Of a stretch of DNA of 64,000 nt, positions 4,647 through 57,439 are shown one piece after another. The position numbers and the translations under genes were made by a program. Numbering within the stretch: position 1 is the stretch's first letter; each line of letters opens with the position of its first letter. The notes beneath the pieces were generated by a model. That model was not told the DNA's origin, did not search any database, and saw nothing but the letters and a program-made list of their open reading frames with translations. Source of the DNA: Gemmatales bacterium (GTDB lineage: Bacteria; Planctomycetota; Planctomycetia; Gemmatales; HRBIN36); the NCBI GenBank assembly GCA_041640595.1, contig JBEPZY010000009.1, positions 64,001 through 128,000 on the forward strand, written 5' to 3'.

Positions 4647-4831
4647 GTAACTGTTGCCGGCGGCCATAGATTGTGCGTTCCAGATGCGCACGGCCGTTGG
4701 TCAGTTACAAACCGAGGAGAGTAACTGTAGCCAGCGGCGATCGATTATGGGTTTCAGAACCTGGCACTGTCTATATATGTTCGGCAATTGCGGGTAACTG
4801 TAGCCAGCGGCGATCGATTATGGGTTCCAGA
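4647..4831. repeat. three 38-bp direct repeats with 36- and 35-nt unique spacers
   Basis: GTAACTGTAGCCAGCGGCGATCGATTATGGGTTCCAGA at 4647 (6 mismatches), 4721 (1 mismatch) and 4794; last copy overlaps the stop codon of the M81 peptidase gene. Confidence 0.92.
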
Positions 4832-6287
4832 GCGGGTACATCGGCCGAATGCGGCGATATTGCAGCCGGCGGACATTTACCGTGGTCAGCCCAGGCGTAT
4901 CTACTTCGATGACCGTACCGGCAATGGGCATGTAGGCGGCCTTCCACGCGATCGCGCCTTTGACCACAATGATCCGCAATTGTCGCGGCTCAATTCCCAG
5001 GCAGGTCAATTGACCGAGACTGAATGGCGGATGGCGTTCGGAGGTCAGGACAAGGAGATTGCCGCCGTCCATTTCCAGCAATGCCGTCCAGCCCATGCGA
5101 TGCACTCGCATTCCGCCGTGCCGGGCTTCGCTTTCCTCGTAAGTGCCCGGATGCAATAACCGCACCCGACCGGTAACGGTGACCGGTGAGCCATGCCACG
5201 CATCCGTTTTGCCGCCTACGGTCAGCGTCAGGGTTGCCCCAGTTCCCGCCCGCTGGCATTGCTGCACTGCTTCCGGGTCATACAGGCAGACGAGACTCTC
5301 ACTGGCACCTTGCCTGAGCAATTCCGCCAGCAACACCGTACCATCAGCAGCCGAACCGCCTCCAACATTGTCGCCGAAATCAACGAGGATCACCGGCGTT
5401 CTGGTGGCGCTCAAGGCCTGGCGGACGGCTTCGGTAGCGTCGGGCAATTCCGCCTGCATGGCTGCTCGCTCGTTCCACAGCCGCTCGGATAGCTCCACCA
5501 CCAATCGCCGGGCCAAGTCGCGGTCGGCATCCGTAACCGCCAGAAAACTCGGTCCCATCTGGGGTACATCGGCATAGGGAAAACCGAGCAGGAAACTCAC
5601 CGCCAGCACGCCGGACTGTTGCTCCGCCGAACAAATAGCCTCGAAATAGGCCGCCAGGGGTGGCCGGGAAGTATCCTGTCGCGCCAGGGAAATGATCACC
5701 GGTGGTTTGGCTATCGCGGCTACCGGATGGATTTCCCCGCGCAGTTGGCGTAAAAGTAAACGCGCGGCTCGCCGACCACACTCATACTGATCCACATGCG
5801 GATTGGTGCGATAAGCTACCGCCAGCGGAGACAATTCGGTTATGGATTCCGGCAGGTTACCGTGCAGGTCGAACGTTACTGCCAGCGGAAAGTCCTGCCC
5901 GACCACCCGGCGAATCCGCCGCAACAACTCGGCATCGGCATCCGCGAAACGAGGCGTGACCATCGCCCCGTGCAGAGCCAGCAGCAACGCATCGTAACTG
6001 CCACCCTGCAATTGCCGGCATAAATAGTCCGCCACCTCCTCGAACAAACCATCGTCCACCGCGCCTCCCGGAGTGGCCCAGCCCAGGAACAACGGCTCAG
6101 CCTGGTAACCGCTTTCCTGCAATTCCCGCAAAAATCCCGCGATCTCGTGATGGGAATCGCCCCATTCACGGACCCAATCCGAACCGAAAACCAGCGTTTG
6201 CCGGGCGAACGCCTCCCGATCGGTGAGCCGCGGGTGAAAGGTGTTTGATTCGTGCAGAAAACCAGCCACCGCGATTCGTGCGGCCAT
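4818..6287 (-). CDS. M81 (MlrC-like) metallopeptidase
   Basis: HESNTF, LHGAM, DLHGN, YRTNPHVD, DNVGGG motifs. Confidence 0.92.
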   Translation of the reverse strand: MAARIAVAGFLHESNTFHPRLTDREAFARQTLVFGSDWVREWGDSHHEIAGFLRELQESGYQAEPLFLGWATPGGAVDDGLFEEVADYLCRQLQGGSYDALLLALHGAMVTPRFADADAELLRRIRRVVGQDFPLAVTFDLHGNLPESITELSPLAVAYRTNPHVDQYECGRRAARLLLRQLRGEIHPVAAIAKPPVIISLARQDTSRPPLAAYFEAICSAEQQSGVLAVSFLLGFPYADVPQMGPSFLAVTDADRDLARRLVVELSERLWNERAAMQAELPDATEAVRQALSATRTPVILVDFGDNVGGGSAADGTVLLAELLRQGASESLVCLYDPEAVQQCQRAGTGATLTLTVGGKTDAWHGSPVTVTGRVRLLHPGTYEESEARHGGMRVHRMGWTALLEMDGGNLLVLTSERHPPFSLGQLTCLGIEPRQLRIIVVKGAIAWKAAYMPIAGTVIEVDTPGLTTVNVRRLQYRRIRPMYPLWNP

Positions 6288-6300
6288 GCTCAGCTCCAGC

Positions 6301-7116
6301 TTACGTCGTGTTCTGGCCCGGTGCGGTGTCGCCAAGCCAGTAAAGCAAGGTTTTCACTTCAAATGGCTTCAAGTCGGGCTTCAGGGAAAGCAGTCGCGCC
6401 ACGATACCGGTAAGATGAGCGGCTGCCCAGCTCGTGGCCAGGGTGTTCGCAAAAGGCCCGTAGTAAGCACGGCTATGGGCCTGGAATTCAGTAAACGTAT
6501 CAGGTGCGTAACGAAATTGCAGCGGGGCGGCGAGTTCTCCTTTACGCACCGACAAAAGCGGCGGGGTATGCATGGCAGGCCAGCTCAAAATCAGCGGATG
6601 ATCGTTATGCGCTGCCGCCACCAGAATCACATCGCGGCTGTAGCAAAATTGAAGCGCCTGCCAGAGGGCATAGCGTCGCGCCGGCGATTGCAAACGTTCC
6701 TCTGCCACGCCCAGGGAAATGTTGATCAGCTTGCACTGCCAGTGCGTCACCGACCAGTGCAATGCCTGAACCAGCTTTTCGACGGTGCAGTTTCCTGTAC
6801 CGCCAAACACATCTGCAGAAAAGAGCTGGACCCGGGGAGCTAGCTGCAAAATGATGTCTGCCACCGTGGTACCGTGAGTGGCGCTGTGCCGGCCGGAATA
6901 GGGCAAAACCTCACCCGCAGGGCCGAAAATGACGCCTTCGATCTTCGGTGGCTCATGGCCCCGCTCCCGGCAACGCCGGGCGATTAATTCGGTATCCACG
7001 CCCGTATCCACCAGGGCCACTTTTACCCCTGAACCATCCGCCGCCGGGTCGCGGAGGAGCCGATCCCGATCCAGCCGTTGGAACAGTTCCTTGAAAAAAT
7101 CGCCTGTGGACGCCAT
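6301..7116 (-). CDS. S8 family (subtilisin-like) serine peptidase, no signal peptide
   Basis: VALVDTG, HGTTVA, INISLG, AAAHN, ATSWAAAH catalytic-triad motifs. Confidence 0.85.
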   Translation of the reverse strand: MASTGDFFKELFQRLDRDRLLRDPAADGSGVKVALVDTGVDTELIARRCRERGHEPPKIEGVIFGPAGEVLPYSGRHSATHGTTVADIILQLAPRVQLFSADVFGGTGNCTVEKLVQALHWSVTHWQCKLINISLGVAEERLQSPARRYALWQALQFCYSRDVILVAAAHNDHPLILSWPAMHTPPLLSVRKGELAAPLQFRYAPDTFTEFQAHSRAYYGPFANTLATSWAAAHLTGIVARLLSLKPDLKPFEVKTLLYWLGDTAPGQNTT

Positions 7117-7149
7117 GAGCGGAGAATGTAATAGTTCCGGCTCGGCCGA

Positions 7150-10497: not shown

Positions 10498-10753
10498 GCA
10501 ACTAATCCGCCGAACAGCTCCATCGCCGCTACACCTTGCGCTGGGCTGGACTGAGACGCCAAGCCACGGCTGCGATTAGTCTGCCCTACGGCTCCAACGC
10601 CGCTTCATTCTATCGCAGCTAAGCGGCGACGCAGGCGGGACGTCCGCAACTAACCTGCCAAACCCTTTCAACGCCGCGCCGCTCCATCGGAGGTAGCCGG
10701 CGATGCGGAATTGACGCTTGCAACCAACGCGCCAGACGGCTCCAACGCTGCTA
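10498..10753. repeat. four degenerate ~34-bp direct repeats at an exact 74-bp period
   Basis: Consensus GCAACTAAyCyGCCnnACrGCTCCAACGCCGCT at 10498, 10572, 10646, 10720; intervening sequences unrelated. Confidence 0.85.
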
Positions 10754-10774
10754 CTGGCTGGGATGCACAAACTT

Positions 10775-11051: not shown

Positions 11052-11423
11052 CTGAGTTATGCCCAGTTTTGACGGGAGCTCCGCTGGACGTCAGGCATGG
11101 GGAGGATAACGGTTACGTCGGACGGCCTGTTTTTCCGGGGGCACTTGGAACACGCAAGCCCCGCCTGTGCTTGCTCAGGTTTTAGCAAAGGTTTAGCACG
11201 CTTTCGGCATAATCGTGAATCTGGCGGCTGTTTGTGCTTCCTCAGGTTCTGGCAAAGGGCCGCCGACCGTTAGGCACATAGTTGGCTGCGGTCGGCTCGC
11301 CTGCACGCGGCAATGATGTTAGCACCCGGTGCGCGAGGCCGGAAAAATAAGAATTTTCGTAAGCTCTTGTCCGGGACTGTTTTTCGAAATCACCCGCCGC
11401 TATCAAAACTGGGGATGAGTCAG
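11052..11423 (-). mobile_element. MITE-like element, copy 1 (inverted relative to copies 2 and 3)
   Basis: Imperfect terminal inverted repeats CTGAGTTATGCCCAGTTTTG / CAAAACTGGGGATGAGTCAG; homologous throughout to 38805-39106; no ORF. Confidence 0.8.
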
Positions 11424-11705
11424 AGATTCACGCCGTGCTCAGATTCACGCCATATTCACCACGTAAACACCGGATGGAAGAATCGCGTCGGAAACTATGC
11501 TCGCCGAGCCAGGACGCACACAAGGCGTTCCAATCGCACATGGAAATTCAAAGGCCAGACCATAGATAAAGTCGCAGGTGAAAGGTTCACGTAGCGAACC
11601 GTGAACGGGCTGTTGGAGGATTGTATGGCAGGTGCGCACGACACTGAGGGGTCGCTGGAACTATTCGAGGAGCAAACGATGGCCAGCCTTGCGGGGCGGC
11701 ATGTC

Positions 11706-11812
11706 GAAACGGTGAGTGAAGCCGGGACGGTGAACCTGGCCCCGTGCCTGGCTCATCAGCCGGAGGTCGTGCTTTCGAGGGGAACGATGAGTGGGGCCGG
11801 GATGGTGAACCT
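11706..11812. repeat. 32-bp direct repeat pair, period 75
   Basis: GAAACGGTGAGTGAAGCCGGGACGGTGAACCT vs GGAACGATGAGTGGGGCCGGGATGGTGAACCT (27/32). Confidence 0.8.
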
Positions 11813-12200
11813 CACACAGAGCGGCGATGAGAATTGGCCAGGCTCGCGGTGGCCGTTACCTGCCGCCCGGAAGCAAACATGCAGAAATGGCTCGGATTTT
11901 CACGGTAGCTGCCAAAGAACGCCGCTTCTGGAAGGCGGAAAGCATGGCTGCGGGAGAAGGCCACGAGATGAAAGCGCCCATAGCTACGGTGCGGCAGGGT
12001 TATGCAAAGGCGATTGGTGTGAAGGAAGGAAATTGCCACGCGACAGAAAAAGCGGTGGCAGCGACCCAGCGTTGCTTTCGGAAGTCGAACGGCCTGGAGG
12101 CAACAAACAGCAGGGAGAAAAAATTAGCGGCAACAATTACCCGTTGTGTGTGCACAGTTCGCAAGGACAAAAGCGGGCGAGGTCGGCGAAAGTCTGGGTG

Positions 12201-15200
12201 ATGATGCTGGCCAGTCTGACGGTGAGCTGGGCGGTGCTCGCGTTGGTGTGGATCACGGTGATCGAGTGCAGGCCAGGCTGGGTTGGTGCCGCGCAGTCCG
12301 AACAAGGTGCAAAGGGTGACCAGGGACGCAAACCAGTCCGACTCTTCGCCGAGGCGGAAGATTTCCGGGTCACCTCCCCCGGCTGGGAGGTGGTGCCATA
12401 TCGGGAAAATTATTTCGCCTGTACATTTGCGATCACGTTTTTGTCGCGGATGGCAGCTCTGGGAGCGCCGGAGCAATTACCGCCGGGTCAGGTGGCGGTC
12501 GCGGAACAGGACATCCAGATTCCCTACGGAGACACTTACGAACTGCTGGTGCGTTACGAACAGCCGTACAACTTCTCCTGCGAGTTCACCATCGAAATCG
12601 AACAGCATGGCAAGGTGGTGGGTCGTTTCCTCTGTGGCCGGTTGACTGATCCGAAAATCTGGGCGTTCAACAACCACAAGCGTGAGCCGATGGTGCGCTA
12701 TACGTGGAGCGGGACGGATAACATCGTCTGGCAGCATCCCGGAGCGGTGAAACTGTCGGGGGGAGCGGCGAAGTTGCGGTTGTTAGCCACAGCCCAGCTC
12801 GACGAAGGCCGACCCCGTCGCAATGCCGCACGCCGGCATGTGGACGTCATCTGCCTGACCAACGACCGTGACGGTATGGAACGCCAGAAAAAGGCAGGTT
12901 ACCTGGAGTTCGACGGCTGGTTGGTGCAGGATGGCGACCTGTTTGTGCGGATCACCAACCCGGCCGACGCTCCGGCGCCAGTGGTGGTCGTGTTACCGCC
13001 CATGCAGGCCCAGCATTCGCCGTATTACGTACACGTCCGCGATTGGCCGACCACCACCGTGCTCAAGTCGGGTCGTGCTGTCTCAGCTACCGATTATCAG
13101 ATCGCCGGGCCGCGTTCTCAGCAAGTTCGGCCGGAATTGCTCGCACCGCTGGTGGAACTGCCCAAGGTCATACCGCCCGAGCAGTATTTGCAGCCCGGCG
13201 ACCGTTCCGGATGGGTTCCGATTGGTCAGTCGTGCGATGCCCTCAATTACGGCCAGTGGTGGGCTGAGGTACGTTATCCGCCGAAAACACCGAACGCTCC
13301 GCCGGCCGGCTCGATGTATCTCCGCTGGGAATTCGGCATACCGGACGGTCAAGGCGGCATTCGCGTTATCAAGGACATCACCATCCGCTGCGATGGCAAG
13401 GATCGGACGGAGTTCGGTTTCGACATTCCCGGGTGCATCCATCCCAATCCGACTCTGGCGGCGATCCTGAAACAACGATACTGGTTGCCGGAAATCCGTA
13501 CCCAGAAGGAAGCGTTACGCTGGCTTCTCGAGCAAGTCCGCAAGTTCCCGCAGGTGGGACGGGTGCCGGAGCGGTTGTTGATTTACGGAATCGAAGCGGG
13601 CAACACGGAAGAAGGCCGGCAATTGGGACTGGCCCTGGGAGACAATACTCGTTATCGCGGCCAGGGAAAGAAACGCGGCATGATCACGCATTGGCCCAAT
13701 CCCGACCTGAAATGGATCGAGCAACAGGTGGCCAAACGCCCCGGCGGTCTGGAAGATGTGCTCATTGTCAGTTACGGCGATGAGATTCACCTGCCTGCCG
13801 AAAAGATCACCGACCAGGAACTGGCCGACTGGCTCAAGGCTCGCGGTGTGGCTTACGATGGCCCCGTTCAGGTCGCCAAAGACCGGTCGCATCCGCTGTA
13901 CTACTACTCGCAACTGGCGGCCAAAGAGAAAGGCGGTGCTCGTTATGCCGCGGCCACGGCGTATTACAAAAGCAAAGGGGTGCTGACCGGCGCGAATTAC
14001 TCACCGCATGCCAACTTCCTGGTCAACGAGCTGGACTATATCCGCACGTTCAAGCTGCGGGCGATGAGCATGCCCTGGACGGAAGATTATGCCTGGCAGA
14101 TAGCGGAGTTCAGCCCGCAAGTCGTGGGGTATCTGCTCAGCGGTTTGCGAGCGGGGGCCAAATACGATCGCCTGCCCATGCACATGTACGTCATGCCGCA
14201 TTCGCCGGGCCAGATTCCCAGTGAGTTCCGCCAGAGTTTTTACTGTTCCATCGCCCACGGGGCCAAAATGATCAACTACTTCACCGCCACGCCTTTAGCC
14301 GTCGGTTACACGGAAAACTACGTGGACACCTACGACCTGGGCATGTGGCAGATGATCCACCGCTGCACGCATGAAGCGGGGATTTTCGAGGACTATGTGG
14401 TGGACGGCGAGGTTCGCCCCGCACGAGTCGGCTTGCTGCTGTCGAGCGTGGACGACATCATCACCGGCGTCAACAACTTCAGCCTGGCTTTGCACAACAA
14501 CGAGCGCAAAGCGATCTATTTCGCCCTGCGTCATGCTCAGGTGCCGGTGGATTTCCTCAGCGAGGATGATGTCATCGAAGGCAGGGCCCGCGACTATAAG
14601 GTCATCTACGTAACCCAGCAGTACCTGCACTCCCGCTGCATCGCAGCGTTGCAGAAATGGGTCGAGGCAGGCGGGACGCTGGTGGCCTTCTGCGGTGGTG
14701 GTTTCCGGGATGAGTTCCAGCGCGACAATCCGGCAGCGGTGCATCTTTACGGTGCCCGCAGCGGTCCCATCCAAACCGACCCGAACCTGGTTCCCAAATA
14801 CCTGCTCGGCCAGGCTAATTCGCCGTTCTTTGCCAAGCAGGATTTGCCGCTTTACGAACCGTGGGACTACGTGCAATGGAATCTCCGTCGGGCCAAGCCC
14901 TTCGCCACCGCACCGGCAGCACCGACCGATGGCAAAACAGCAGCCACAACCGCCGACAAAGCGAATGCTTCTGCCGCCGACGGGGGCGTCGAGCGTGTAC
15001 CCGTCATTGCCTGGAAACAACCGCTCACGGTAACAACAGGAACCGTGGTCGGCACGTTTCAGGACGGCAGTCCGGCAGTGGTTGTGCAAGCCCACGGTCG
15101 CGGACGCACCGTATTGTTTGCCTTTCTGCCGGGCCAGGCCTATCTGCGTAGCGGATTACCAGTGCGGCCAGTGGATCGGGGAGCCCACCCCGGCAGCTTT

Positions 15201-15551
15201 GCCCATTACCTGCCGACCGATATGGATCGGCATCTCCGCCGGCGTCTGGTGGATGATTTCCTGCCGGCAGACGATTCTTCGATCCGTCCGGTGCTGGTGG
15301 ATGCGGAATTGATCGAGACTACCTGCATTGACACGCCAGTCGTCAACGGCCGACCTGCACGTCTGGCCATTCCGTTGATCAACTGGAGTGGCAAGCCGGT
15401 ACCGCAATTGCACGTGCTCATCCGCGACGTGCAAAAAGTCAGCAGGGTGCGGAGTGTCGTTCACGGCGAGCTGAAGGCCACACCGTCACCGCAGGGTTTG
15501 CGGGTCACACTGCCGCTGGAAGTGGCCGACATGCTCCTCATAGACCGCTAA
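12201..15551 (+). CDS. large secreted protein, probable glycoside-hydrolase-like barrel plus beta-galactosidase trimerisation-like domain
   Basis: ORF is open from 11601, but the first ~200 codons look non-coding; signal-like segment near 12201; ALRHAQVPVDFLSEDD...YKVIYV...WVEAGGTLV resembles the GH42 trimerisation domain; start uncertain. Confidence 0.7.
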   Translation: MMLASLTVSWAVLALVWITVIECRPGWVGAAQSEQGAKGDQGRKPVRLFAEAEDFRVTSPGWEVVPYRENYFACTFAITFLSRMAALGAPEQLPPGQVAVAEQDIQIPYGDTYELLVRYEQPYNFSCEFTIEIEQHGKVVGRFLCGRLTDPKIWAFNNHKREPMVRYTWSGTDNIVWQHPGAVKLSGGAAKLRLLATAQLDEGRPRRNAARRHVDVICLTNDRDGMERQKKAGYLEFDGWLVQDGDLFVRITNPADAPAPVVVVLPPMQAQHSPYYVHVRDWPTTTVLKSGRAVSATDYQIAGPRSQQVRPELLAPLVELPKVIPPEQYLQPGDRSGWVPIGQSCDALNYGQWWAEVRYPPKTPNAPPAGSMYLRWEFGIPDGQGGIRVIKDITIRCDGKDRTEFGFDIPGCIHPNPTLAAILKQRYWLPEIRTQKEALRWLLEQVRKFPQVGRVPERLLIYGIEAGNTEEGRQLGLALGDNTRYRGQGKKRGMITHWPNPDLKWIEQQVAKRPGGLEDVLIVSYGDEIHLPAEKITDQELADWLKARGVAYDGPVQVAKDRSHPLYYYSQLAAKEKGGARYAAATAYYKSKGVLTGANYSPHANFLVNELDYIRTFKLRAMSMPWTEDYAWQIAEFSPQVVGYLLSGLRAGAKYDRLPMHMYVMPHSPGQIPSEFRQSFYCSIAHGAKMINYFTATPLAVGYTENYVDTYDLGMWQMIHRCTHEAGIFEDYVVDGEVRPARVGLLLSSVDDIITGVNNFSLALHNNERKAIYFALRHAQVPVDFLSEDDVIEGRARDYKVIYVTQQYLHSRCIAALQKWVEAGGTLVAFCGGGFRDEFQRDNPAAVHLYGARSGPIQTDPNLVPKYLLGQANSPFFAKQDLPLYEPWDYVQWNLRRAKPFATAPAAPTDGKTAATTADKANASAADGGVERVPVIAWKQPLTVTTGTVVGTFQDGSPAVVVQAHGRGRTVLFAFLPGQAYLRSGLPVRPVDRGAHPGSFAHYLPTDMDRHLRRRLVDDFLPADDSSIRPVLVDAELIETTCIDTPVVNGRPARLAIPLINWSGKPVPQLHVLIRDVQKVSRVRSVVHGELKATPSPQGLRVTLPLEVADMLLIDR

Positions 15552-15722: not shown

Positions 15723-16232
15723 TCAGGTCGGGCAAAGAATCACCGGCGGCGAAGCTGGCTGTACAGCATTCCCGGAAGCGGTTCTATTCGACGTGCTGGC
15801 GTTGCTCACCGGCACACTGCCTCGGACCGATTCGGTTACCGCGTGGGCGGTCAGCAACCGTTGCAGTTCGGTATCGCTCATCGCCCCTTCTCGCCGTAGC
15901 GCCTGCGTCTGTCCCCAGCGATCGCTGATGACCAGAGCTGGCAGGTTACGGACAGCGAAAGCCCGTGCCAGAGCCGCTCCGTATCCCCCATCGCTCGCAT
16001 TCGCATAAACGCAATGGAAGTGTTGTCTGGCCAGCTCCAGGCTCCTGGCCGACCAGCTTTCCCGAACCAAATTTTTCCAACCGCTGTCTCCTTCCCCGAT
16101 GACCACCAGAACCGGCTTGCCGTCTTGCCTGCACGCTCGCAAGGCCGCCCCGTAATCCCTGTTCCACACATCGTCCGATGGCGAGAGCGAGACGGCCAGC
16201 AATACCGTCATCCAGCCAGCTACAGGTTGCAT
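15723..16232 (-). CDS. secreted thioredoxin-like fold protein (no CxxC)
   Basis: AAGGAGG RBS; signal peptide; WNRDYGAAL...GKPVLVVIG...LPALVISD pattern. Confidence 0.7.
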   Translation of the reverse strand: MQPVAGWMTVLLAVSLSPSDDVWNRDYGAALRACRQDGKPVLVVIGEGDSGWKNLVRESWSARSLELARQHFHCVYANASDGGYGAALARAFAVRNLPALVISDRWGQTQALRREGAMSDTELQRLLTAHAVTESVRGSVPVSNASTSNRTASGNAVQPASPPVILCPT

Positions 16233-16454
16233 AGCTGCTCCTCCTTGTGGCATCCTCATTACCAGCGCAGACGACATAGCCTGCGCATCTTGAGGCATTG
16301 GTTTTAGCAACCCGAGGCCAACAGGGCAAACAAAATTTTGAAAAAGTTTCTGCTGCTTCCGCCAACCGCTGCGTTCATCGTGAAATTCCAAACTTGTTAT
16401 TCTCACCAAAACATCGCAAGTTAACTCGCCCACGGCTCATGCTTGTTCTCGCAC

Positions 16455-16691
16455 ATCGGCAGCAACGCATTGCCATCGGGCTACTCCGTCCAGTTGCGAC
16501 AAAATGCGGCAGGCGGCATGCGACCCCAATACAGCGACGCCTTGCCTTTGGTGCTACAGGGATAAACCACGTGCTGCTGCACTTGTCGGCAGCAATACAG
16601 CGACGCCCTGGTTTTCGTGCTACCCTAGCTGCGGCGAAATACGGGAGGCGGAACTCGAACGCCCACAGCGACGCCTTGGTTTTACTGCTAC
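16455..16691. repeat. four degenerate ~31-bp direct repeats with unique spacers
   Basis: CAATACAGCGACGCCTTGsyTTTsGTGCTAC at 16527, 16593 (27/31), 16661, weaker copy at ~16455; spacers 35 and 37 nt between the best copies. Confidence 0.85.
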
Positions 16692-17047: not shown

Positions 17048-18418
17048 ATGGAATCTCGCAATCAGCATTGGGCTATCCTCGGCGGTTTACTGGCCGGGGC
17101 TCTGGTGGGCCTGCTGGTCAACGTGTTCCGGGATACGCTAGACGCCACTGTAAGCTGGATACTGAACAAGGAGGTACAAGCTGTCGAGTGGGTGGTGGTT
17201 TATGTCGCCGAGCCCATCGGGCGAATTTTTCTCAACCTGCTACTGATGACCGTGGTGCCGCTGGTGTTTGCATCGCTCTCGGCTGGCATAGCGCAGCTCG
17301 GCGATTGGCGGCGATTGGGCTCTATAGGTCTGCGAACATTCCTGTTTTTCGCGCTCAGTATGACCATCGCCTGCATTACGGGATTGGTTCTGGTTAACTG
17401 GTTCGAGCCGGGCCGGGCCTTGCCTCCTTCCGTCCGTGAGGAACTTTTCGCTACGGCAAAGCGGACCGGCCCGGAAACGTCCCGAACAATGAGTGGGCAG
17501 CAGTCCCAGCCGAAAAGTGCTGGTGTTGCTCAAGATGGCCGCACTTCCGAAGCGCCGAAATTCGGTGTGGACTTTTTGATCGGACTGGTGCCGCGGAACC
17601 CCTTCCAGGCAGCGGTAGAAATGAACATGTTGCAGATAATCGTGTTTGCCCTGCTGGTGGGGGTCGCGCTTACCTTGCTTGCCGAGAGCCGCCGGCACTC
17701 GTTACTTTCGCTTCTGGAAGCGACCAGTGACCTGATGGTCGTGCTGATCGGTCTGGTGATGCGAATCGCTCCGCTGGCCGTGTTTGCGCTGCTGTTCGCC
17801 AGGACCGCCAGTTTCGGCCTTACCTACCTTCGACCGCTGGGGCAATACGTGCTGATTGCCTTGCTGGGTATGGCTGTTCATCTGCTGGTAACCATGAGCC
17901 TGCTGGTCTGGTGGCTGGGTAAGCGCAGGCCGTGGGATTTTTACCGACGAATCTGGCCGGTGATAGTAACGGCCTTTTCCACCAGTTCCAGCAATGCGAC
18001 GCTGCCGACCAGTTTGCGTACCGCTCAGCAAGAACTGGGCATTCCGCCGCAGGTGGCCGGGTTCGTCCTCCCCCTGGGAGCTACCATGAACATGAACGGC
18101 ACGGCTTTGTACGAGGGCGTCACGGTGCTGTTTCTGGCGCAAGTCTATTTCGGCACAAGTCCGGACTGGACAGCGCAACTGATCGTCATCGGTCTGGCTG
18201 TTGTTACTGCGATTGGCGCCGCTGGGGTACCCGGTGGTTCGTTACCCTTGCTGGCGACGGTGCTCACCGCCGTAGGCGTGCCCGGAGAGTACATTGGCAT
18301 GATCCTGGGCGTTGACCGTCTTCTCGACATGGCCCGAACAGTGCTCAACGTCGTCGGCGACCTCGTCACCGCTGTCTTTATAGCACGCAGCGAACAAAGC
18401 CATTCGGCCGGCCCGTAA
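17048..18418 (+). CDS. dicarboxylate/amino acid:cation symporter (DAACS/GltP family)
   Basis: AFSTSSSNATLP, PLGATMNMNGTALY, IGAAGVPGG, DMARTVLNVVGD. Confidence 0.95.
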   Translation: MESRNQHWAILGGLLAGALVGLLVNVFRDTLDATVSWILNKEVQAVEWVVVYVAEPIGRIFLNLLLMTVVPLVFASLSAGIAQLGDWRRLGSIGLRTFLFFALSMTIACITGLVLVNWFEPGRALPPSVREELFATAKRTGPETSRTMSGQQSQPKSAGVAQDGRTSEAPKFGVDFLIGLVPRNPFQAAVEMNMLQIIVFALLVGVALTLLAESRRHSLLSLLEATSDLMVVLIGLVMRIAPLAVFALLFARTASFGLTYLRPLGQYVLIALLGMAVHLLVTMSLLVWWLGKRRPWDFYRRIWPVIVTAFSTSSSNATLPTSLRTAQQELGIPPQVAGFVLPLGATMNMNGTALYEGVTVLFLAQVYFGTSPDWTAQLIVIGLAVVTAIGAAGVPGGSLPLLATVLTAVGVPGEYIGMILGVDRLLDMARTVLNVVGDLVTAVFIARSEQSHSAGP

Positions 18419-23140: not shown

Positions 23141-23236
23141 GTGTGTCCCTTTCCATCGCCGGGTTGCAAGCTTGGTAGAGCTCAGAGCAGCCATCACCAT
23201 CGAGCGTGTGTCCCTTTCCGTAGTCGGGTTGCAAGC
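23141..23236. repeat. 31-bp direct repeat pair with 34-nt spacer
   Basis: GTGTGTCCCTTTCCATCGCCGGGTTGCAAGC at 23141 and 23206 (28/31). Confidence 0.88.
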
Positions 23237-23287: not shown

Positions 23288-24136
23288 GCACGGCGGGCTG
23301 ACGTCCGCCGCTCCTGGTCGTGTGTGGGACTCCGCATTGCGAATCACGCATTTCGCGACGAACGAACGTCGTGCAACCAGGAGCGGCTGGCGTAAGCCAG
23401 CCGTGGTACGCGAACGTAGCCCGTCGGCGAAAGACGGTTGCATGTGCAGGTGCGTTACTTAACCACGGCGGGCTAACACCCGCCGCTCTTGGTTGTCGCT
23501 CCGGTCGTCGTCCAACATAGCGCGGTTGCAACCGCACAGCGCCCGGTTCAGCGAACCACGGCGGGCTGACGCCCGCCGCTCTTGGTCGTGTGTGGGACTC
23601 CGCATTGCGAATCACGCATTTCGCAGCAAACCAACGTCGTGCAACCAGGAGCGGCTGGCGTAAGCCAGCCGTGGTACGCGAACGTACCCCGTCGGCGAAA
23701 GACGGTTGCATGTGCAGGTGGGTTACTTAACCACGGCGGGCTGACACCCGCCGCTCCTGTTCGAATGTGCGTTTGTGCATCGCAAAAATCGTTGTTTCGC
23801 CGGCGGACGTCCGCACACCAATACAAGAGCGGGGGGCGTAAGCCCCCCGTGGCGCCAATGGACACGATTGTAATCCGGAGCCGTATGAGCCATAAACGAT
23901 TCTGGCGCTACGTTAGCCCCGTGGCGCTTATAAACGCGAATGCAACGGCAATCCGCACACACCATCGGCGGTCTGCTGACGAATGGCGCCGGTCTCTGCG
24001 GATGCGGGTTTGTCCACCCACGGCGGGCTAACACCCGCCGCTCTTGGTTGTCGCTCCGGTCGTCGCCGAACAGAACACGACTTCGACCGCACAGCGCCCG
24101 GTTCACCGAATCACGGCAGGCTAACGCCCGCCGCTC
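23288..24136. repeat. REP-like palindrome cluster 1 (9 intact 26-bp units)
   Basis: CCACGGCGGGCTrACrCCCGCCGCTC at 23288, 23463, 23556, 23731, 24018, 24111; opposite-orientation GAGCGGCTGGCGTAAGCCAGCCGTGG-type units at 23381, 23649, 23827. Confidence 0.92.
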
Positions 24137-38259: not shown

Positions 38260-38410
38260 AACCCAGATACCACACCCGCACCGAGCCATCCTCACATCCG
38301 CATACAGGATACCGGCCATCGAGCATCACGGCCAGACTTAGGAACCAGTTTTGCGGGACGCTTCTGGCAGATAAAGCGTGTCTGGCTACCAGTCGCGGCC
38401 AGACCTGGAA
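38260..38410 (-). pseudogene. WD40-repeat gene remnant
   Basis: Translates as NWFLSLAVMLDGRYPVCGCEDGSVRVWYL, one decayed WD40 blade; no intact gene. Confidence 0.55.
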
Positions 38411-38432
38411 CCTATTTTACTCTGTCTAAAAG

Positions 38433-38795
38433 ATGACCTATCCCCAGCTTTAGTTGGGCAGGCCGCTTCGCAGAACCCCGTCAGACAATGGCTTATAAAA
38501 GTCCTATTTGTCGGTCTCGGGAACCAAACGCCCCCTCGTTCCAGCATTCGGTACGAGAATAGGACTGGCATTGCTGCAGACGACCATCACCAAACGCCAC
38601 CTCATTCCAGCGTTCGGTCTGCCCATTGCAGCCCACCGCGTGCCGGGCGATTGACTACCTCCTTTGAAGCCCCGAAGAAACTCGGCGGAGTTCTCGATGC
38701 TCCCTCTGTCCCCGGAAAAACAGGCCATCTGACGGAACCGTCATTATCCGCCCGCCTTACGTCCGGGTGAGCCCCAAAGCTGGGGGATGAGTCAG
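38433..38795 (+). mobile_element. MITE-like element, copy 2
   Basis: TGACCTATCCCCAGCTTTAG...CAAAGCTGGGGGATGAGTCAG termini; homologous to the adjacent copy 3. Confidence 0.8.
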
Positions 38796-40982: not shown

Positions 40983-43961
40983 ATGAATCTCGTCAACAAC
41001 CAAGGCTTCCACAATCCTCAACCCGCGACTGGTGCCGAGTTGTTCAGCGCCGACCGGCATCCTTTGCTTGAACGCGAAGCCGTGCGACAAATTGGTATCC
41101 ACGGGGCTCGGGGCACCGGTAAAACCTGTTATCTTGCCTCGTTGTACGGCCGCAGGATTAACTACGACCTGGGGTTCAGCCTCTCGTTGGACGACAACAA
41201 TCCCGAGGATTCGCTCGATCACCTCAGCCACGCCTGGCAGGCGTTGCAGAAAGGTAGCGTGCCTCCCGCCACGGCAGCGGTCAATCCGTTCCGTCTCTCT
41301 TTCACCGTAACGCATTGTGGCCAGAGCTGGTCTGTCCGGACTCTCGATTACGCCGGCGTTCTCGTCGAGCGTACCCCCACCGGCGCCCAGGACCTCAAGA
41401 TGGAAGTGCAACAATGGCTCTGCCAGTGCGACGGACTGCTCATTTTCGTGGACCTCAGCGAACAGCCTCAGAATTTGCTCGACCGCCTCAACGAAGTGGA
41501 CCTTCTGCTCAACCGCCTCCGCAAACTCAGCCCGGATGGCCAAACCGTACCCATCCCCGTAGCCGTCGTCTTCACCAAATGGGATTGCGTGGCTAAAGAC
41601 CTGCAAGGGGCTGATTTCGCCAGTCAACAGCAGAAACTCCGTCACTATCTCGCTAACCATGCCGAGTTCAAGCAGTTTTATGACCAGATCCAGCTCAGCG
41701 GCGAGCGAGTCGAGGTTTTTCCGGTTTCGGTTTTCGGCAAATATCAGGGCAATAATCTCCCGCCGCCGCAGGGAGCTCAACCTTTCGGTATTCACGAGCC
41801 CATCCTCTGGGTGCTTCAGGAATGCGATCAGGCAATTTTCGATGCCACCGAGGCGCGAGTGACCCCGCTCCTGAACAAACGCTGGGCCAACTACGCGAAA
41901 GCCATTGCTACTTATAACTCAATCGCCAGAAAACGCCTGATTGTTCGTGGGCCGGTCGCAGATAGTTTCGCCCAGGCCATTCGCCAGCTGCGTATGCGTG
42001 CCGCCTTTCGCTTCACACGCCTGGCCGCTTCTATCCTATTCACCTCGGTGCTGCTGACCCTGTCCGGAATGTTAGGCTGGGATACCTATCGCTACCACGC
42101 CGCCCTTAGGGCACTAAACGACGTTCGGTATTTGCCGGAAATGAAAGAACAAGCCGCCCTGGATTACATCAAAACAGCTAACCCCTTTGCACAGTGGCTC
42201 GGTCGTCGTCAGCGCGTCGAGGAACATCTCGCTAAGTTGCGCAATGACTGGCACGACGCTGACTATAATGAATTACTATCGTTCTGGACAGCACACGAAG
42301 CGGACGAAACTAAGCAGCAGGAAATCGTAACCCGCACACGCCAGTTTCTAAATCGGTGGCCCGATAGTCCTTGCCGTTCTGAAGTTGAAACCTGGCAGCG
42401 AAACGCCGATGCCATTGTCCGTAAGCAACACGAGCAAAAAGCCTGGGAGGGTCTGGTGCAATTCTTCACCCAGCATGATAAAGACTCCGAGGCGGAACAA
42501 CGCATTAACAGGATCGAAACGTTTTTGCGTGAGTATCCCGAGTCTGACTATAAGGAAGATGCACTAAGCTTAAAAAGAACCGCCGAAGATGCTCACAAGC
42601 GCTGGCAACAGTTCCAGACCCTGCTAAGTGACTGGCCACAAATAAAGCAGGAATGTGAGACCTTGACCATCGGCGGTAATTCTGATGCGGCCGTTAAAAG
42701 GTGCGTGGAATTCCGAGCCAAATGCCAGCAGTTTCAACGGTCAGTATGGTCATCTCCAACTTATAAAGAGTATAGCGACGAGCTGGCCCGGCTCCTAGAC
42801 GAGATTGACAAGACCGGCGACCAATGTCAGTGGCGGGGAGTCGAACTTTATACCGCTCGCAACCCTTCAAACTATGACGAAATCATCAAGAGGGCGAAAG
42901 CATATAAGGACAGCACAACATTCGCCACTAAGTATTTCGAGAAGGCAGCGGATAAGCTTATGATGCAGACCCTGCGAAGTGAATGGTCCCAGATACAAGT
43001 CGAATGTGAGAACCTGACCAACGGCGGTAACTCTGATGCGGCCGTTGAAAAGTGCAAGGAATTCCGAACCAAATGCCGGCAGTTTCAACAGTCCGTCTGG
43101 TCATCTCCAACTGATAAAGAGTATCGCGACGAGCTGGCCCAGCTCCTTGACGAGATTGACAAGACCGGCGACCAATATCAGTGGCGGGGAGTCAAACTTT
43201 ATGCCGATCGCAACCGTTCACACTATGAGCAAATCATCGAGAAGGCGGAAGCATATAAGGACAGCAAAATCTTCACCACTAAAAGCTATGATAAGGAAGC
43301 GGATAGTCTCATCGAAAAGACGGCTGAGAGCTGGGACTCCGCACTGTATAACGGTTTTCGGAACGCTGCCATCTACGCCGCTGGTCTGGCAGTCGAGACC
43401 AACGATATGGAGCGAAAGACCCGCGCATTTGAAGATGCGGCCAAGTTAGCCCGTGCATATCTTGAGAGCAAATGCCCAAAGAAAAAACATAAGTCAACCG
43501 TGGAAAAATGGTTGCAATGGTTCGATGGAATCAACAAACCTGCCGTAGCGTTAACGGTGATTATCGTCGATGCTCAATTAGCTGACAATGCGGAGACCAT
43601 CTATGATCCGTTCGATCCGCCTGATGTGGAAATTACCCTGGAACTCAGCACACAGGCAGGCCAAAACCAGCAATGGAAAACCCCCGTCGTGAATAATAGC
43701 TTTGCTCCGAGGTATAACGTCGAATGCAGGAATGTTATGGTAAGCTGGAACGACCGCAACGCAAAGCTAAAACTGACTCTAACCGACAAGGACATAGCCT
43801 CTGATGACGAGTTGCCTATAACTTTCCAGGGGCCAGATGTGATTTTCCTGCTGGAAGGCTGGGTTTGGGTACAGGATGGGCCAGGACGCCATCACATTCG
43901 CTTTTCCTGTGAGCAATTGCGGCCACCAACCTTGCCTGAGTATGGTAACAATCCTCTATAA
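40983..43961 (+). CDS. membrane-anchored TRAFAC-type GTPase with duplicated helical repeat and C-terminal C2-like domain
   Basis: G1 GARGTGKT, G3 DYAG, G4 TKWD, G5-like VSV; TM LAASILFTSVLLTLSGMLGW; 117-aa tandem duplication; C2-like KTPVVNNSFAPRYN...LTLTDKDIASDD; AAAGGAG RBS. Confidence 0.85.
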   Translation: MNLVNNQGFHNPQPATGAELFSADRHPLLEREAVRQIGIHGARGTGKTCYLASLYGRRINYDLGFSLSLDDNNPEDSLDHLSHAWQALQKGSVPPATAAVNPFRLSFTVTHCGQSWSVRTLDYAGVLVERTPTGAQDLKMEVQQWLCQCDGLLIFVDLSEQPQNLLDRLNEVDLLLNRLRKLSPDGQTVPIPVAVVFTKWDCVAKDLQGADFASQQQKLRHYLANHAEFKQFYDQIQLSGERVEVFPVSVFGKYQGNNLPPPQGAQPFGIHEPILWVLQECDQAIFDATEARVTPLLNKRWANYAKAIATYNSIARKRLIVRGPVADSFAQAIRQLRMRAAFRFTRLAASILFTSVLLTLSGMLGWDTYRYHAALRALNDVRYLPEMKEQAALDYIKTANPFAQWLGRRQRVEEHLAKLRNDWHDADYNELLSFWTAHEADETKQQEIVTRTRQFLNRWPDSPCRSEVETWQRNADAIVRKQHEQKAWEGLVQFFTQHDKDSEAEQRINRIETFLREYPESDYKEDALSLKRTAEDAHKRWQQFQTLLSDWPQIKQECETLTIGGNSDAAVKRCVEFRAKCQQFQRSVWSSPTYKEYSDELARLLDEIDKTGDQCQWRGVELYTARNPSNYDEIIKRAKAYKDSTTFATKYFEKAADKLMMQTLRSEWSQIQVECENLTNGGNSDAAVEKCKEFRTKCRQFQQSVWSSPTDKEYRDELAQLLDEIDKTGDQYQWRGVKLYADRNRSHYEQIIEKAEAYKDSKIFTTKSYDKEADSLIEKTAESWDSALYNGFRNAAIYAAGLAVETNDMERKTRAFEDAAKLARAYLESKCPKKKHKSTVEKWLQWFDGINKPAVALTVIIVDAQLADNAETIYDPFDPPDVEITLELSTQAGQNQQWKTPVVNNSFAPRYNVECRNVMVSWNDRNAKLKLTLTDKDIASDDELPITFQGPDVIFLLEGWVWVQDGPGRHHIRFSCEQLRPPTLPEYGNNPL

Positions 43962-45565: not shown

Positions 45566-46630
45566 ATGTTAGGAGCCAGCTTGCGAAGAACGGTCAGGGC
45601 AGTCTTACGAGGGTTGGTTGCCGTATTAATCGCGGTATTAATAACCGCGGCCATAGTTGTAGGCGTACATGGTGCGTTGCGTGCCGCTCAGGATAGGCGT
45701 GAATTACAGCCAGCCCTCGAATATATGGCCTCGGTGGTAGAAGCAGCGATCGGCTATACACCTAAAGACCGCGAAGGGATCACCGAGGCTTTTTTCACTC
45801 TTTACAGCAGAACGCACTGGCAGACTGGGGAAATAGGCAACAAAAACCATCCCGATGCACAGTTCCTTATGCGTCTGCCGGATAACGTCCAGCAAGTACC
45901 TCGGTCTTTTCTGGCAAGGTGGCGAACGAGGCCATTGTACGACTATATAGAGCAACACACGCTGGGATTATTGAACGCGGTGAGCGCACCAACCGACGTG
46001 TCTAATTTTCCGTTGGCTGATCGGATAAGGCTATGCAGCGAGCGATGTCGCTATCAGTTGTGGTGGGAGAAGGATGGCGCAAATAAACTTGACGTGTTGG
46101 GACTGGATTCACCCGCCCTGGATGCGAAACGGTTGCAGGCGTTTTATCAATTGTTTTGCAAGGATAGCAAACCTCCTGCGTGGCAGGTGGAAACAGCCAA
46201 GCTGATACTCGGCGACTTACGCCGCTGGCGAGTGGGGGGACTTAGCGATGCCGATTGCGAACATCGTCCATACTTAGTGTTCGCGTGTTACTTTCATCTG
46301 CTCTCCCACAAACATTTCAGGAATGACGAATTGAAGCTCGATTGCTATGCTTCGCATTTCGTATTGCGCCTCCCGGATAAACCCATTTCTCTCCATGGCA
46401 AATTTGACTCTGAGAAAGAACTGGCCCAGGCATTCGAAAAGCTGCTCACTTCTATCTCGCAGCAGAAACCGGCACAGGATGTTAGAAACGTTTTGGAGCA
46501 AATTCGCAAGGAACTGGATTACGATGTTTGGCTCGCCAGGTTCAGGGTCCTGATAAAGACCTCCGATGAGGACAAGACGACCGTCCATCTGAAGAATTTC
46601 GTGGCTCGATTTTCGAGCGGGAAAAATTAG
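45566..46630 (+). CDS. hypothetical membrane-anchored protein with two related helical domains
   Basis: AAAGGAG RBS; N-terminal TM; internal repeat similar to the C-domain of the upstream protein. Confidence 0.8.
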   Translation: MLGASLRRTVRAVLRGLVAVLIAVLITAAIVVGVHGALRAAQDRRELQPALEYMASVVEAAIGYTPKDREGITEAFFTLYSRTHWQTGEIGNKNHPDAQFLMRLPDNVQQVPRSFLARWRTRPLYDYIEQHTLGLLNAVSAPTDVSNFPLADRIRLCSERCRYQLWWEKDGANKLDVLGLDSPALDAKRLQAFYQLFCKDSKPPAWQVETAKLILGDLRRWRVGGLSDADCEHRPYLVFACYFHLLSHKHFRNDELKLDCYASHFVLRLPDKPISLHGKFDSEKELAQAFEKLLTSISQQKPAQDVRNVLEQIRKELDYDVWLARFRVLIKTSDEDKTTVHLKNFVARFSSGKN

Positions 46631-46928
46631 TTCGGCACCTGAACCGTGTCCTGTCACGTTTGGCGTCCTGCGTGCGTTAAGGTGTTGGAAAACGAGGAGA
46701 CACGCAGATAGCTGTAAGGTGCATGCGAAAACACCAGCACTTGCTTCCACTTGTGCATCACCACGGGGCTAAGCAAACGGGCGAAGAAGAACAGGAGCAG
46801 CTAGTTGCGTGTTCGCGGCGGGGTTGGTCCCGGTAGGGGTTGGCGTTGCGTTGTGGCGGTTGAGGATCGTAGCGGAGCGGCGTTGGGCCGCTCGTTATCG
46901 TTTAAAAGTGCAGTCACGGATGAGGCGA

Positions 46929-47036
46929 GTTGATGGAATATTGCCTCCGAATGAGGTGCGGCGGACCGCTTACAGGACTCAGCCAGCATTTCAGTGACGT
47001 GTTGGTGGAATGCTGCCTCCGAATGAGGTGCGGTGG
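46929..47036. repeat. 36-bp direct repeat pair with 36-nt spacer
   Basis: GTTGATGGAATATTGCCTCCGAATGAGGTGCGGCGG vs copy at 47001 (32/36). Confidence 0.9.
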
Positions 47037-47054: not shown

Positions 47055-47729
47055 ATGCGAGCGGTGATCTTTTTTGACATAGACGGGACATTGCTGCGCA
47101 GTGGTGGGGCAGGTAAACTGGCGATGGAAACCGCTATATGCCAGACGTTCGGCGTACCGCCTGCCGGTGTTCGCATTCCCTATAGCGGGCGAACCGATCG
47201 TGCTATCATACGCGACTTGATGCAGGCTCACGGCGTACCTCTCACCGAGGAGAATTTCCAGCGTTTCGTGCAAACGTACTTGCAGCTGTTGCCGGACTGC
47301 CTCAGGCGAATGCAGGGACGAGTGCTGCCGGGTGTGCTCGAACTGCTCGATCGGCTGCAAGGTCAGGAAAATTGTGCGGTCGGTTTGCTCACGGGCAATC
47401 TGCGCTGTGGTGCACGAACCAAGCTGGGGCATTTTGGTCTAGCGGAGCGCTTCCCTTTTGGTGGATTTGGCGACCACCATTACGAACGGGATCGGGTGGC
47501 TCGAGACGCTCTGGCAGCTGCTCACGCTTACTTGAACGGTCAATACGACCCGAACCGCATCTGGGTGATTGGCGATACGCCGCTCGATATCCAATGCGCA
47601 CGCAGCATCGGTGCGCGGGTTCTGGCTGTGGCGACCGGCACGCATTCGCTGGAAGAACTTGCCGCTCACCGCCCCGATTTACTCCTTCCTGATCTGAGCC
47701 AATATCAACTGTTTCTAGAGCACATTTGA
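47055..47729 (+). CDS. HAD-superfamily hydrolase
   Basis: FFDIDGTL, LLTGN, IGDTPLD. Confidence 0.92.
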   Translation: MRAVIFFDIDGTLLRSGGAGKLAMETAICQTFGVPPAGVRIPYSGRTDRAIIRDLMQAHGVPLTEENFQRFVQTYLQLLPDCLRRMQGRVLPGVLELLDRLQGQENCAVGLLTGNLRCGARTKLGHFGLAERFPFGGFGDHHYERDRVARDALAAAHAYLNGQYDPNRIWVIGDTPLDIQCARSIGARVLAVATGTHSLEELAAHRPDLLLPDLSQYQLFLEHI

Positions 47730-55800: not shown

Positions 55801-56156
55801 TTGGCACCGATCATCTCAACGCCGAACCGTTCCAGGATGCCGCGTTCATGAAGGGCGATAGCGGTGTTCAGCCCTGTCTGACCGCCGAGCGTTGGCAACA
55901 ACGCATCTGGCCGTTCCCGTTCGATGATGCGAGCCACTACTTCCCAGGTAATCGGCTCGATATACGTGCGATCAGCCATTTCCGGATCGGTCATGATGGT
56001 GGCGGGATTGGAATTGACCAGCACCACCTCATAACCTTCCTCCCGCAGGGCTTTGCACGCCTGGGTACCGCTGTAATCAAACTCACACGCCTGGCCGATA
56101 ATGATCGGCCCCGAGCCGATGATCAGAATTTTGTGGATATCCGTTCGTTTGGGCAT
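52809..56156 (-). CDS. carB: carbamoyl-phosphate synthase large subunit
   Basis: [17 protein letters not shown], duplicated ATP-grasp domains, MGS domain. Confidence 0.98.
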
Positions 56157-56425
56157 GGTGGCGTAATGGATTTCCTGGTAATCAGCCTGGAAAGAGACGG
56201 TTTCACCTGGGCTGGGGTAAGATGCTACCAGCTAACGCCCTTCCGGCGCGCTCCCGTCCATGTTAGGGAATCTTTCTTGTGGTGAAAAGAGCGCAGCCTA
56301 AGCCGCACTTCGGTCTGGCCGGCTTACGGAAACAAAACACACCCTATCCGGTGGCCTGGCAAATTATTCCGACCGCTTTTCGCCCGACAATGCCCAGAAC
56401 CGGAACTTTCGGGCAGAGCTTAGAG

Positions 56426-57175
56426 CTAATTGCGGCTCCTGAGCAATGCCAGGAGGATGTAGTAGAAGAGCGTTACGACAGAAGCAAACAGTCCCAGGGC
56501 GGCAGCGACATGCTGGTCGGTGCGATAGTGATACATCACGTTGGAAGTCTGGTAAATAATCGCTCCGCTCACCAGGCCCACCATCGCCAGTGCAAACCAC
56601 AATCCCAGATTGAATCCGAACAAAATGGCGGCGACAATCAGGCCCAGGGCCAGCCAGGAAAGCACCCAGAGAATCGGCCCGAGGTAACTGAAATCTTTGC
56701 GGGTCGTGAACACGCAAGCCGTCAATCCACCGAACACCGCCAGCGTCAAAATGGCGGCCTGACCGATGAGTGTTGGTTCGCCCAGCACGTGCTTTACCAC
56801 AAACAGCAGCGGCAGGCAAATAATCGCCTCTGCAACCGTGTACACGGCCAGGCCAGCATACTGCAAAGCTGGCGAAGCGTCGGACATCGCCCACTTTTCC
56901 GCCAACCAGGCCACCAGCATGAATAGCCCCAGCACGACCAGCCAGCTGTAGTTTCCCAGCGCGACCATGCTCTTCAAGATTTGCACCGATAACGGCCACA
57001 AGGGCACCAGGAGCAGGTACTCGATGGCTACGAAAGCTAAAAGTGCACCGGCCACATGCGCATACACTCGGCGAATAAAAGCCGCCCGTTCCGCCGGAAT
57101 CGCAAACGCTGCTGGCAGCGAACGCACATCCTGACCTTCGTAGAATTCGTACTCGGCCGCATGGTATTGGGACAT
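56426..57175 (-). CDS. Bax inhibitor-1/YccA family membrane protein
   Basis: FIRRVY, TRKDFSYLG, IIYQTSNV; about 7 TM; AAGGAG RBS. Confidence 0.9.
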   Translation of the reverse strand: MSQYHAAEYEFYEGQDVRSLPAAFAIPAERAAFIRRVYAHVAGALLAFVAIEYLLLVPLWPLSVQILKSMVALGNYSWLVVLGLFMLVAWLAEKWAMSDASPALQYAGLAVYTVAEAIICLPLLFVVKHVLGEPTLIGQAAILTLAVFGGLTACVFTTRKDFSYLGPILWVLSWLALGLIVAAILFGFNLGLWFALAMVGLVSGAIIYQTSNVMYHYRTDQHVAAALGLFASVVTLFYYILLALLRSRN

Positions 57176-57328
57176 GGCTAGCTCCTTGTAAGCAGGTGCC
57201 ACACTTTGCTTACCCCCGCTGACCAATTTTAGCACCGCAGCCAGCAACATTCAATAGAGCCACCAGCGAGTGTCGGCCTTCGCTTATTAGCGTTATGACG
57301 ACTGCAACCAGGTCACGGCCGAAGAAAC

Positions 57329-57439
57329 ACAGAAGGTCGTCGTGACTCGCACGTCAGCCATCCGCGCAAAGACGAGCGAAACCGGTCACACACGCACAGC
57401 TGACGGAAGGTCACCGGGATTTGCACGTCAGCTATCCGC
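57329..57439. repeat. 37-bp direct repeat pair with 37-nt spacer
   Basis: ACAGAAGGTCGTCGTGACTCGCACGTCAGCCATCCGC vs copy at 57403 (30/37). Confidence 0.87.

Follow-up and report, generated by a model that had tools for sequence, protein, structure and literature searches.

Repeat-insert-repeat units in the window

The window analyzed in this study is a 64,000-nt stretch of the genome of a Gemmatales bacterium (C9:64001-128000 of a 4.45-Mb assembly in 42 contigs). It contains a series of short direct repeats around unrelated inserts, with the dimensions of single CRISPR units. We refer to these units as scars, for reasons given below, and divide them by period into a short class and a long class. 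A sequence-only reading of the window had listed at least 12 such sites, five of the short class and seven of the long class; all 12 were found to be real, with the periods given for them. Each has two to three direct repeats of approximately 25-40 nt, approximately 70-97% identical, around unrelated inserts of approximately 35-37 nt. When the units were printed in register, the boundaries between repeat and insert were sharp at 12/12 sites, including the decayed ones at 10498, 24217, and 29941. As had also been claimed, the repeat differs at every locus. At least three sites beyond the 12 were present in the window. The scars and candidates, in window positions, are the following (MITE, miniature inverted-repeat transposable element):

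4647..4831: long-class scar, three repeats of 38 nt (4647-4684, 4721-4758, 4794-4831), inserts of 36 and 35 nt, periods 74 and 73
10498..10683: decayed, old scar of the long class with some three weaker copies, period 74, 20-22/28 matches
11162..11258: short-class scar within a MITE, 30-nt duplication, 36-37-nt insert, period 67
11706..11812: long-class scar, period 75, repeats 87% alike
16527..16691: short-class scar, three repeats of 31 nt around two unrelated inserts, periods 66 and 68
23141..23236: short-class scar, period 65, 31-nt repeats 90% alike
23845..23945: long-class candidate, absent from the earlier list, period 72, 76% alike, amid MITE hairpins
24217..24312: short-class scar, period 66, 25-nt core 88% alike
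29941..30050: long-class scar, decayed, period 71-72, 23/28 matches at 71
37950..38072: long-class scar, period 75
38326..38418: weak short-class candidate, period 67, 73% alike, under the threshold of the loose scan described below
38523..38618: short-class scar, period 66, 30-nt repeats 90% alike
46926..47036: long-class scar, period 72, 39-nt repeats 87% alike
57329..57439: long-class scar, period 74, 37-nt repeats 81% alike
29655 (period 75) and 34946 (period 66): weak candidates

The window was searched for repeats with copies at most 120 nt apart. Families were returned at 4647, 11708, 16527, 23141, 23845, 24222, 37950, 38326, 38523, 46926, and 57329, and every one of them had a spacing of 65-68 or 72-75 nt. 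A looser scan (at least 20/28 matches, periods 40-110) gave, apart from MITEs, 8 hits at periods 65-68 and 13 at periods 71-75. Only five strays were seen, at periods 42, 45 (twice), 81, and 83, and there were no hits at all at periods 46-64, 69-70, and 76-80; the remaining hits, at periods 88 and 93, were MITE tandems.

According to the list of open reading frames (ORFs), the scars of the window lie between long ORFs or at ORF ends. The scar at 16527 is flanked by ORFs 15723..16433(-) and 17048..18418(+), that at 46926 by ORFs 45566..46630(+) and 47055..47729(+), and that at 57329 by ORFs 56426..57250(-) and 57485..58123(+). The scar at 11706 is located in an unconserved 5' extension of ORF 11601..15551, whose alignment with relatives starts at approximately position 12320, and the scar at 10498 lies just upstream of a tRNA-Val gene. 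At 4647, ORF 4818..6335(-) reaches into the third repeat with the end that carries its stop codon. Since copies 2 and 3 of this scar are 97% alike and copy 1 is only 82% alike, the site received two insertions in succession.

Genome-wide distribution of repeat periods

The whole assembly was scanned for direct repeats with 28-nt windows, at least 24 matches, and periods of 30-200. The only peaks were at periods 65-68 and 72-76 (sharp, at 66 and 74), together with their multiples. Much of this raw signal was contributed by two giant canonical CRISPR arrays. In a recount from which the canonical arrays were removed and in which a non-matching gap of at least 15 nt was required, 23, 61, 42, and 19 pairs were found at periods 65-68, and 19, 44, 42, 43, and 10 pairs at periods 72-76, compared to 1-9 pairs at each neighboring period. 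The two peaks are far above the chance expectation, and they stand near 66 and 74, where the sequence-only reading had expected them near 66 and 73.

With length limits added, this strict test retained 286 pairs at 229 loci, of which 137 pairs were of the short class and 149 of the long class, with 1-6 pairs at each neighboring period. A looser threshold gave 388 short-class and 504 long-class hits at 433 loci over a background of approximately 12 per period. Before the later statistics were made, 35 of the 286 strict pairs were removed by means of hand-listed regions of protein repeats and whole-unit repeats, which left 251 pairs.

Resident CRISPR systems

The first of the two canonical arrays, array A (C1:359748-377935), has a 37-nt repeat in 246 copies and 244 spacers, most of them 36-37 nt long. 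Array B runs from the end of contig C10 into C8:1-21090 and comprises repeats of 30 nt (317+27) and spacers (315+26) that are again mostly 36-37 nt long. The genome contains exactly two cas1 matches, one next to each array, and in the vicinity of each lies one of two cas2 matches. The cas2 match lies approximately 160 nt from cas1 in system B and approximately 2.2 kb from it in system A, beyond a reverse transcriptase (RT) gene; both cas1 and both cas2 matches exceed the Pfam cut-offs. The neighbors of array A are the RT (550 aa) and Cas1 (342 aa). Those of array B are Cas1 (458 aa), Cas4, Cas3, Cas5, Cas7, and a full Cmr set (Cmr1-6), and the array-B adaptation module (Cas1, Cas2, Cas4) accompanies type I-B-like and type III-B genes.

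A 9.6-kb contig, C15 (locus L013, 1-9585), was matched by 31 array-B spacers and by one array-A spacer. The array-B spacers against C15 were nearly all near the leader end and mostly directed at one strand, with CC at positions -3/-2 in 26/31 cases. System B is clearly active. None of the nine larger ORFs of C15 matched a PHROG family, and no relative of it was found among viral contigs. Probably, this contig represents an unknown virus or mobile element on which CRISPR has mounted an active, primed attack.

Two small arrays were also observed. One, at C3:328836-328932, is an orphan array with two copies of a degenerate array-B-type repeat, the spacer of which matches C15 at 31/34 positions. 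The other, at approximately 1206-1587 of the 4.7-kb contig C20, has a different repeat of the 30-nt class with periods of 67-70, unlike arrays A and B.

Scar geometry compared with the resident arrays

The repeat length of the scars had its mode at 30 nt in the short class and at 37-38 nt in the long class, so that the duplicated length equals that of a resident CRISPR repeat in both classes (30 and 37 nt). The insert length had its mode at 36 nt in both classes. At periods 65-68 the scars numbered 20, 54, 34, and 18, and the canonical units 36, 165, 108, and 26; at periods 72-76 the scars numbered 14, 40, 31, 33, and 7, and the canonical units 12, 81, 99, 37, and 10. Scars and canonical arrays have similar period distributions, and the insert lengths match the resident spacers. 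There are thus two arrays (30+36 and 37+37 nt), two cas1 genes, and one scar class for each.

A site hit by both systems appears to be present at C10:38659-38875, where three copies have a common left edge. Copies 1 and 2 share approximately 37 nt at a period of 75, and copies 2 and 3 share approximately 28-30 nt at a period of 67. It appears that a 30-nt duplication was made first and that a 37-nt duplication, starting at that same edge, was later superimposed and took in 7 nt of the first insert; both integrases appear to have acted there, each measuring its own length. The earlier suggestion of two integrases with rulers of approximately 30 and 36-37 bp is supported by the two arrays with their cas1 modules and by this double-ruler site. 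At the strict threshold, nine loci had at least three repeats, eight of which were of a single class.

Whereas a canonical array keeps one conserved repeat across its units, each scar locus has a repeat of its own. The conserved 3' end common to both canonical repeats was not found in the scar repeats; the single exception encountered, in both respects, was the orphan array at C3:328836.

Evidence for insertion

The inserts were compared with the sequence that follows the second repeat. In the 251 pairs the inserts were 27% identical to this same-register flank, compared to 25% for random genome sequence and 92% between the repeats. Therefore, decayed tandem duplication is excluded as the source of the inserts at most sites, and there the objection that the spacers might be diverged tandem copies falls away.

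Moreover, uninterrupted forms of some sites were present elsewhere in the genome. For the scar at 11162, four paralogous MITE copies have a single 30-nt segment and are exactly 66 nt shorter at this point. In an automated test, in which the flanks were joined to one repeat, paralogous empty sites spanning the junction were found for 24/286 pairs, and six inspected ones, in copies of MITEs and insertion sequences (ISs), were clean indels of 65-75 nt. The empty allele lacks one repeat and one insert, and it was seen in paralogous copies only. A transposon or MITE would place the same element at many sites, whereas the inserts are unique.

Origin of the inserts

Another match in the genome was found for 60/286 inserts, mostly in tandem repeats or duplicated elements. 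The short-class scar at C2:174386 holds an insert that agrees with a canonical array-B spacer at 30/31 positions, with a 2-nt offset; insert and spacer are separate captures of a single protospacer. A scar present at both C2:407699 and C3:561426 has an insert that matches contig C15. Three inserts match single chromosomal places. One of these, from a short-class scar at C3:484583, matches the chromosomal stretch C5:166631-166664, which looks like a fragment of the 23S rRNA gene as known from Escherichia coli; in that case the spacer would be self-derived. When two stretches of the window were compared with a phage collection, one had no match and the other only matches at chance level (E = 0.8).

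Scar classes in relatives

A cas1 match was found in 19/30 relatives. In G002, a genome of the same genus, the only cas1 detected was of the array-A type (352 aa), and the array repeat, of 37 nt, is related to that of array A. The strict test on a 419-kb sample of G002 gave no hits at periods 65-68 and five at periods 70-77; at the scar density of the present genome, approximately 13 short-class pairs would be expected in such a sample. In the loose test, 19 hits were at periods 70-77 and four at periods 65-68, the latter all inside one low-complexity coding repeat. No period peak was seen in 200 kb of G027, in which no cas1 was found. Within the genus, the classes of scars thus go with the cas1 genes that a genome possesses.

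Target choice and distribution of the scars

The first duplicated base was G in 51% of the short class and 44% of the long class, and the last was C in 55% and 40%, respectively. A preference for hairpin-prone targets was considered and rejected, since control windows in the vicinity have a slightly more stable fold than the scar repeats.

Using ORFs of at least 150 aa as a crude proxy for genes, which leaves 8.7% of the genome uncovered, 81/251 pairs were entirely outside ORF cover and 48 straddled an edge. Insertion that preserves the reading frame was not supported: the period was divisible by 3 in 50/122 pairs inside ORF cover and in 51/129 outside it.

Scars were modestly enriched within 300 nt of a MITE hairpin (13.5% versus 7.4%) and, with 13/210 scar loci compared to 3.2% of control positions, within 1 kb of a tRNA gene. 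Their density was approximately one pair per 10 kb on C2 and C3. Sparse regions were C6 (one pair in 256 kb), C7 (two in 242 kb), and C1:350-900 kb (almost none). The scar density tracked the density of MITE hairpins (Spearman 0.71, 79 bins of 50 kb).

As a separate observation, more than 1 Mb of the genome (C1:350000-900000, C6, and C7) is nearly free of both MITE hairpins and scars, and C2, C3, C4, C5, and C9 are rich in both. In the window itself, two hairpin-bearing MITE-like families with tandem units of 93 and 88 nt occur at 23461-24144 and 35273-36543, with many copies genome-wide. The window also carries tRNA-Val (10775-10849), tRNA-Ile (39159-39233), and transfer-messenger RNA (39861-40245; tag AEAHYALAA) genes, and each of the two tRNA genes has scars at a distance of no more than approximately 1 kb. 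A tandem repeat of 351 nt (1.9 copies, 87% matches) at 42615-43282 is inside the 992-aa ORF 40983..43961, and positions 42000-46000 have a lower G+C content (0.51-0.53) than the approximately 0.58 found otherwise.

Age and decay of the scars

The repeats of a pair were mostly 85-95% identical, and 26/286 pairs were perfectly identical. At 13 loci with close paralogs, the repeats differed from the paralog by 10.2% and the flanks by 11.5% (p = 0.34). Error-prone gap filling, or the survival of diverged repeats only, which had been suggested by pair 176, was rejected on this comparison. Cytosine deamination of single-stranded DNA in a gapped intermediate was likewise rejected: the predicted differences between the two repeats (R1=A/R2=G and R1=C/R2=T) were counted 203 times and the opposite ones 189 times (p = 0.51).

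Approximately 20 hot-spring or mat metagenome runs contain approximately 60% of the 31-mers sampled from a 10-kb stretch of the window. One metagenome contig of another strain spans positions 11059-18714 with only seven small gaps and thus includes the scars of 11162, 11706, and 16527. Therefore, the window scars predate the divergence of these strains.

Proposed mechanism

It is established that Cas1-Cas2 attacks its target at two staggered positions and that repair of the resulting gaps duplicates the stretch between them. We infer, with a probability of approximately 0.92, that the units described here were left by the cell's own two Cas1-Cas2 integrases, as fixed scars of spacers integrated off target. 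The two attacks would fall on ordinary DNA, one ruler length apart, and gap repair would turn the target into repeat, spacer, and repeat. The module beside the 30-nt-repeat array would make the short class, duplicating 30 nt and inserting approximately 36 nt, and the RT-linked Cas1-Cas2 module beside the 37-nt-repeat array would make the long class, duplicating 37 nt and inserting approximately 37 nt. The targets would need no likeness to the real repeat and would be chosen with a mild preference for G first and C last. Some sites would have been hit again, giving three to four repeats, and most scars would be old, decaying at the rate of their flanks and persisting mainly in non-coding, MITE-rich DNA. 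The proposal of fossil off-target integration made from the window alone is supported by the geometry, the correspondence to the arrays, the paralogous empty sites, the shared protospacer, and the presence of the cas genes, all of which are observed.

Several observations weigh against this interpretation. A protospacer shared with a canonical spacer was found for only 1/286 scar spacers. A CCN flank was present beside two of the three self protospacers only after the orientation had been chosen by hand and the edges adjusted, and the insert that matches C15 had none; as a sign of a protospacer adjacent motif (PAM), CCN is only suggestive. The spacer comparison proposed earlier has thus given matches to a canonical protospacer, to C15, and to the chromosome, with a weak PAM signal and no phage match. 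Orthologous empty sites were not found, the closest genomes aligning in coding DNA only, at 70-76% identity; the expected empty sites came from paralogous MITE and IS copies, and none from relatives. The strict set includes false positives, as the 35/286 removed pairs are whole-unit or protein repeats. The 26 perfect pairs are close to the chance expectation at 8% mean divergence over 30 nt and are no sign of recency, and among the joints listed for four metagenome runs over window positions 4500-24499 there was no skip of 65-76 nt. The uneven density that tracks the MITEs could reflect retention as much as targeting. Finally, G019, an order-level relative with two cas1 genes and two large arrays (period approximately 72), showed no peak in 320 kb. 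Therefore, large arrays alone are insufficient for scars.

Alternative explanations

Another insertion process with coincidental geometry, whether through some unknown integrase or through filler DNA at breaks with staggered ends, is the alternative that survives best, although we consider it improbable. It draws on the indirect nature of the case for Cas1-Cas2, on the weak target preference, and on the large arrays of G019, which has no scars. However, such a process would have to imitate the two resident arrays in both repeat and spacer length, and it would not account for the common protospacer of one scar spacer and a canonical spacer, nor for the restriction of the one-system relative G002 to the class of that system. 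Moreover, no more than two cas1 genes turned up in the genome.

Slightly less probable still is that the units are functional elements under selection, such as guide-RNA mini-CRISPR arrays or regulatory repeats, and not neutral scars. Some of them persist in another strain, some have grown to three or four repeats, and C3:328836 combines a degenerate canonical-type repeat with a spacer that matches C15. Nevertheless, the repeats differ from locus to locus without the conserved 3' end of the canonical ones, are no more hairpin-prone than controls, and decay as fast as their flanks.

Whole-unit tandem duplication by replication slippage, with half of each unit decayed beyond recognition, is very improbable: true whole-unit tandems do occur in the raw scan (protein repeats of period 72 and MITE tandems of 88 and 93), but slippage is at odds with inserts that resemble their flanks no more than random sequence and with empty sites that lack the insert as well as one repeat, and it would not give two sharp period classes equal to the CRISPR geometry.

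Comparison with known systems

The nearest precedent is the neo-CRISPR work (Nivala, Shipman and Church 2018, Nat Microbiol), in which, according to a paper that cites it, off-target integration was obtained in E. coli over-producing Cas1-Cas2 and supplied with oligonucleotides (PMC7054753). A second citing paper adds 'circumstantial evidence' in two other species and calls it unclear whether off-target integration commonly occurs in bacteria (10.1101/148544). As far as these texts go, the scars resemble the products of that E. coli type I-E system in the spacer-length insert, the repeat-length duplication, the use of non-CRISPR sites, and the capacity to seed small arrays. In contrast, the events recorded here are natural, fixed, and present in hundreds per genome, and they belong to two other adaptation modules (I-B/III-B-linked and RT-linked), each with its own ruler.

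The Cas1-Cas2 of Pyrococcus furiosus integrates at non-CRISPR sites in vitro, and in the part of the study available the off-target sites share sequence features with the repeat (PMC6698737). Like system B, this is a 30-nt-repeat system, and the first G and last C (G1/C30), which the terminal bases of the scars echo, are among the positions studied there. Unlike for the sites described in that part, no likeness to the canonical repeat beyond G and C was found for the scars, in a comparison by eye of one scar repeat, which agreed with it at 5/30 positions. Within the accessible text on Streptococcus thermophilus and S. mutans, ectopic spacer acquisition occurs away from the leader-proximal repeat (PMC7999890, PMC8265633). 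As described there, those events take place inside a true array and use its own repeats, whereas the scars lie in ordinary DNA and create a new repeat.

The scars are also like orphan CRISPR arrays in being small and without adjacent cas genes, but orphan arrays have a recognizable repeat family, whereas the scars, with the exception of C3:328836, have locus-specific repeats. Shmakov and colleagues are said to have described, in 2020, isolated or orphan arrays away from cas genes and to have discussed their emergence through off-target integration. No report of natural genome-wide scars was found in the full-text literature searched, which leaves out most subscription journals and supplements. 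The mechanism is already known from the neo-CRISPR work; what is new is its natural scale, together with the two rulers and the site that carries both.

Significance

Off-target integration has usually been regarded as a rare side reaction of the laboratory, and this genome records hundreds of natural events made with two rulers. The scars constitute a data set on target acceptance, ruler length, and site re-use by Cas1-Cas2 for which no assay is needed. They indicate that CRISPR adaptation carries a measurable genomic cost and footprint, and programs that search for CRISPR may list such units as tiny arrays. The origin of new CRISPR arrays and repeat families also becomes testable. A wider proposal, which we put forward tentatively and regard as rather doubtful at present, is that off-target integration by the two modules is a standing mutational process in this lineage. 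It would have written an estimated 18-30 kb of non-coding DNA; re-use of sites would grow arbitrary sequences into arrays of three to four repeats, and the regional bias would reflect the access of the integrases to DNA and not tolerance alone. If true, such a process would be one way in which new families of CRISPR repeats are born in nature.

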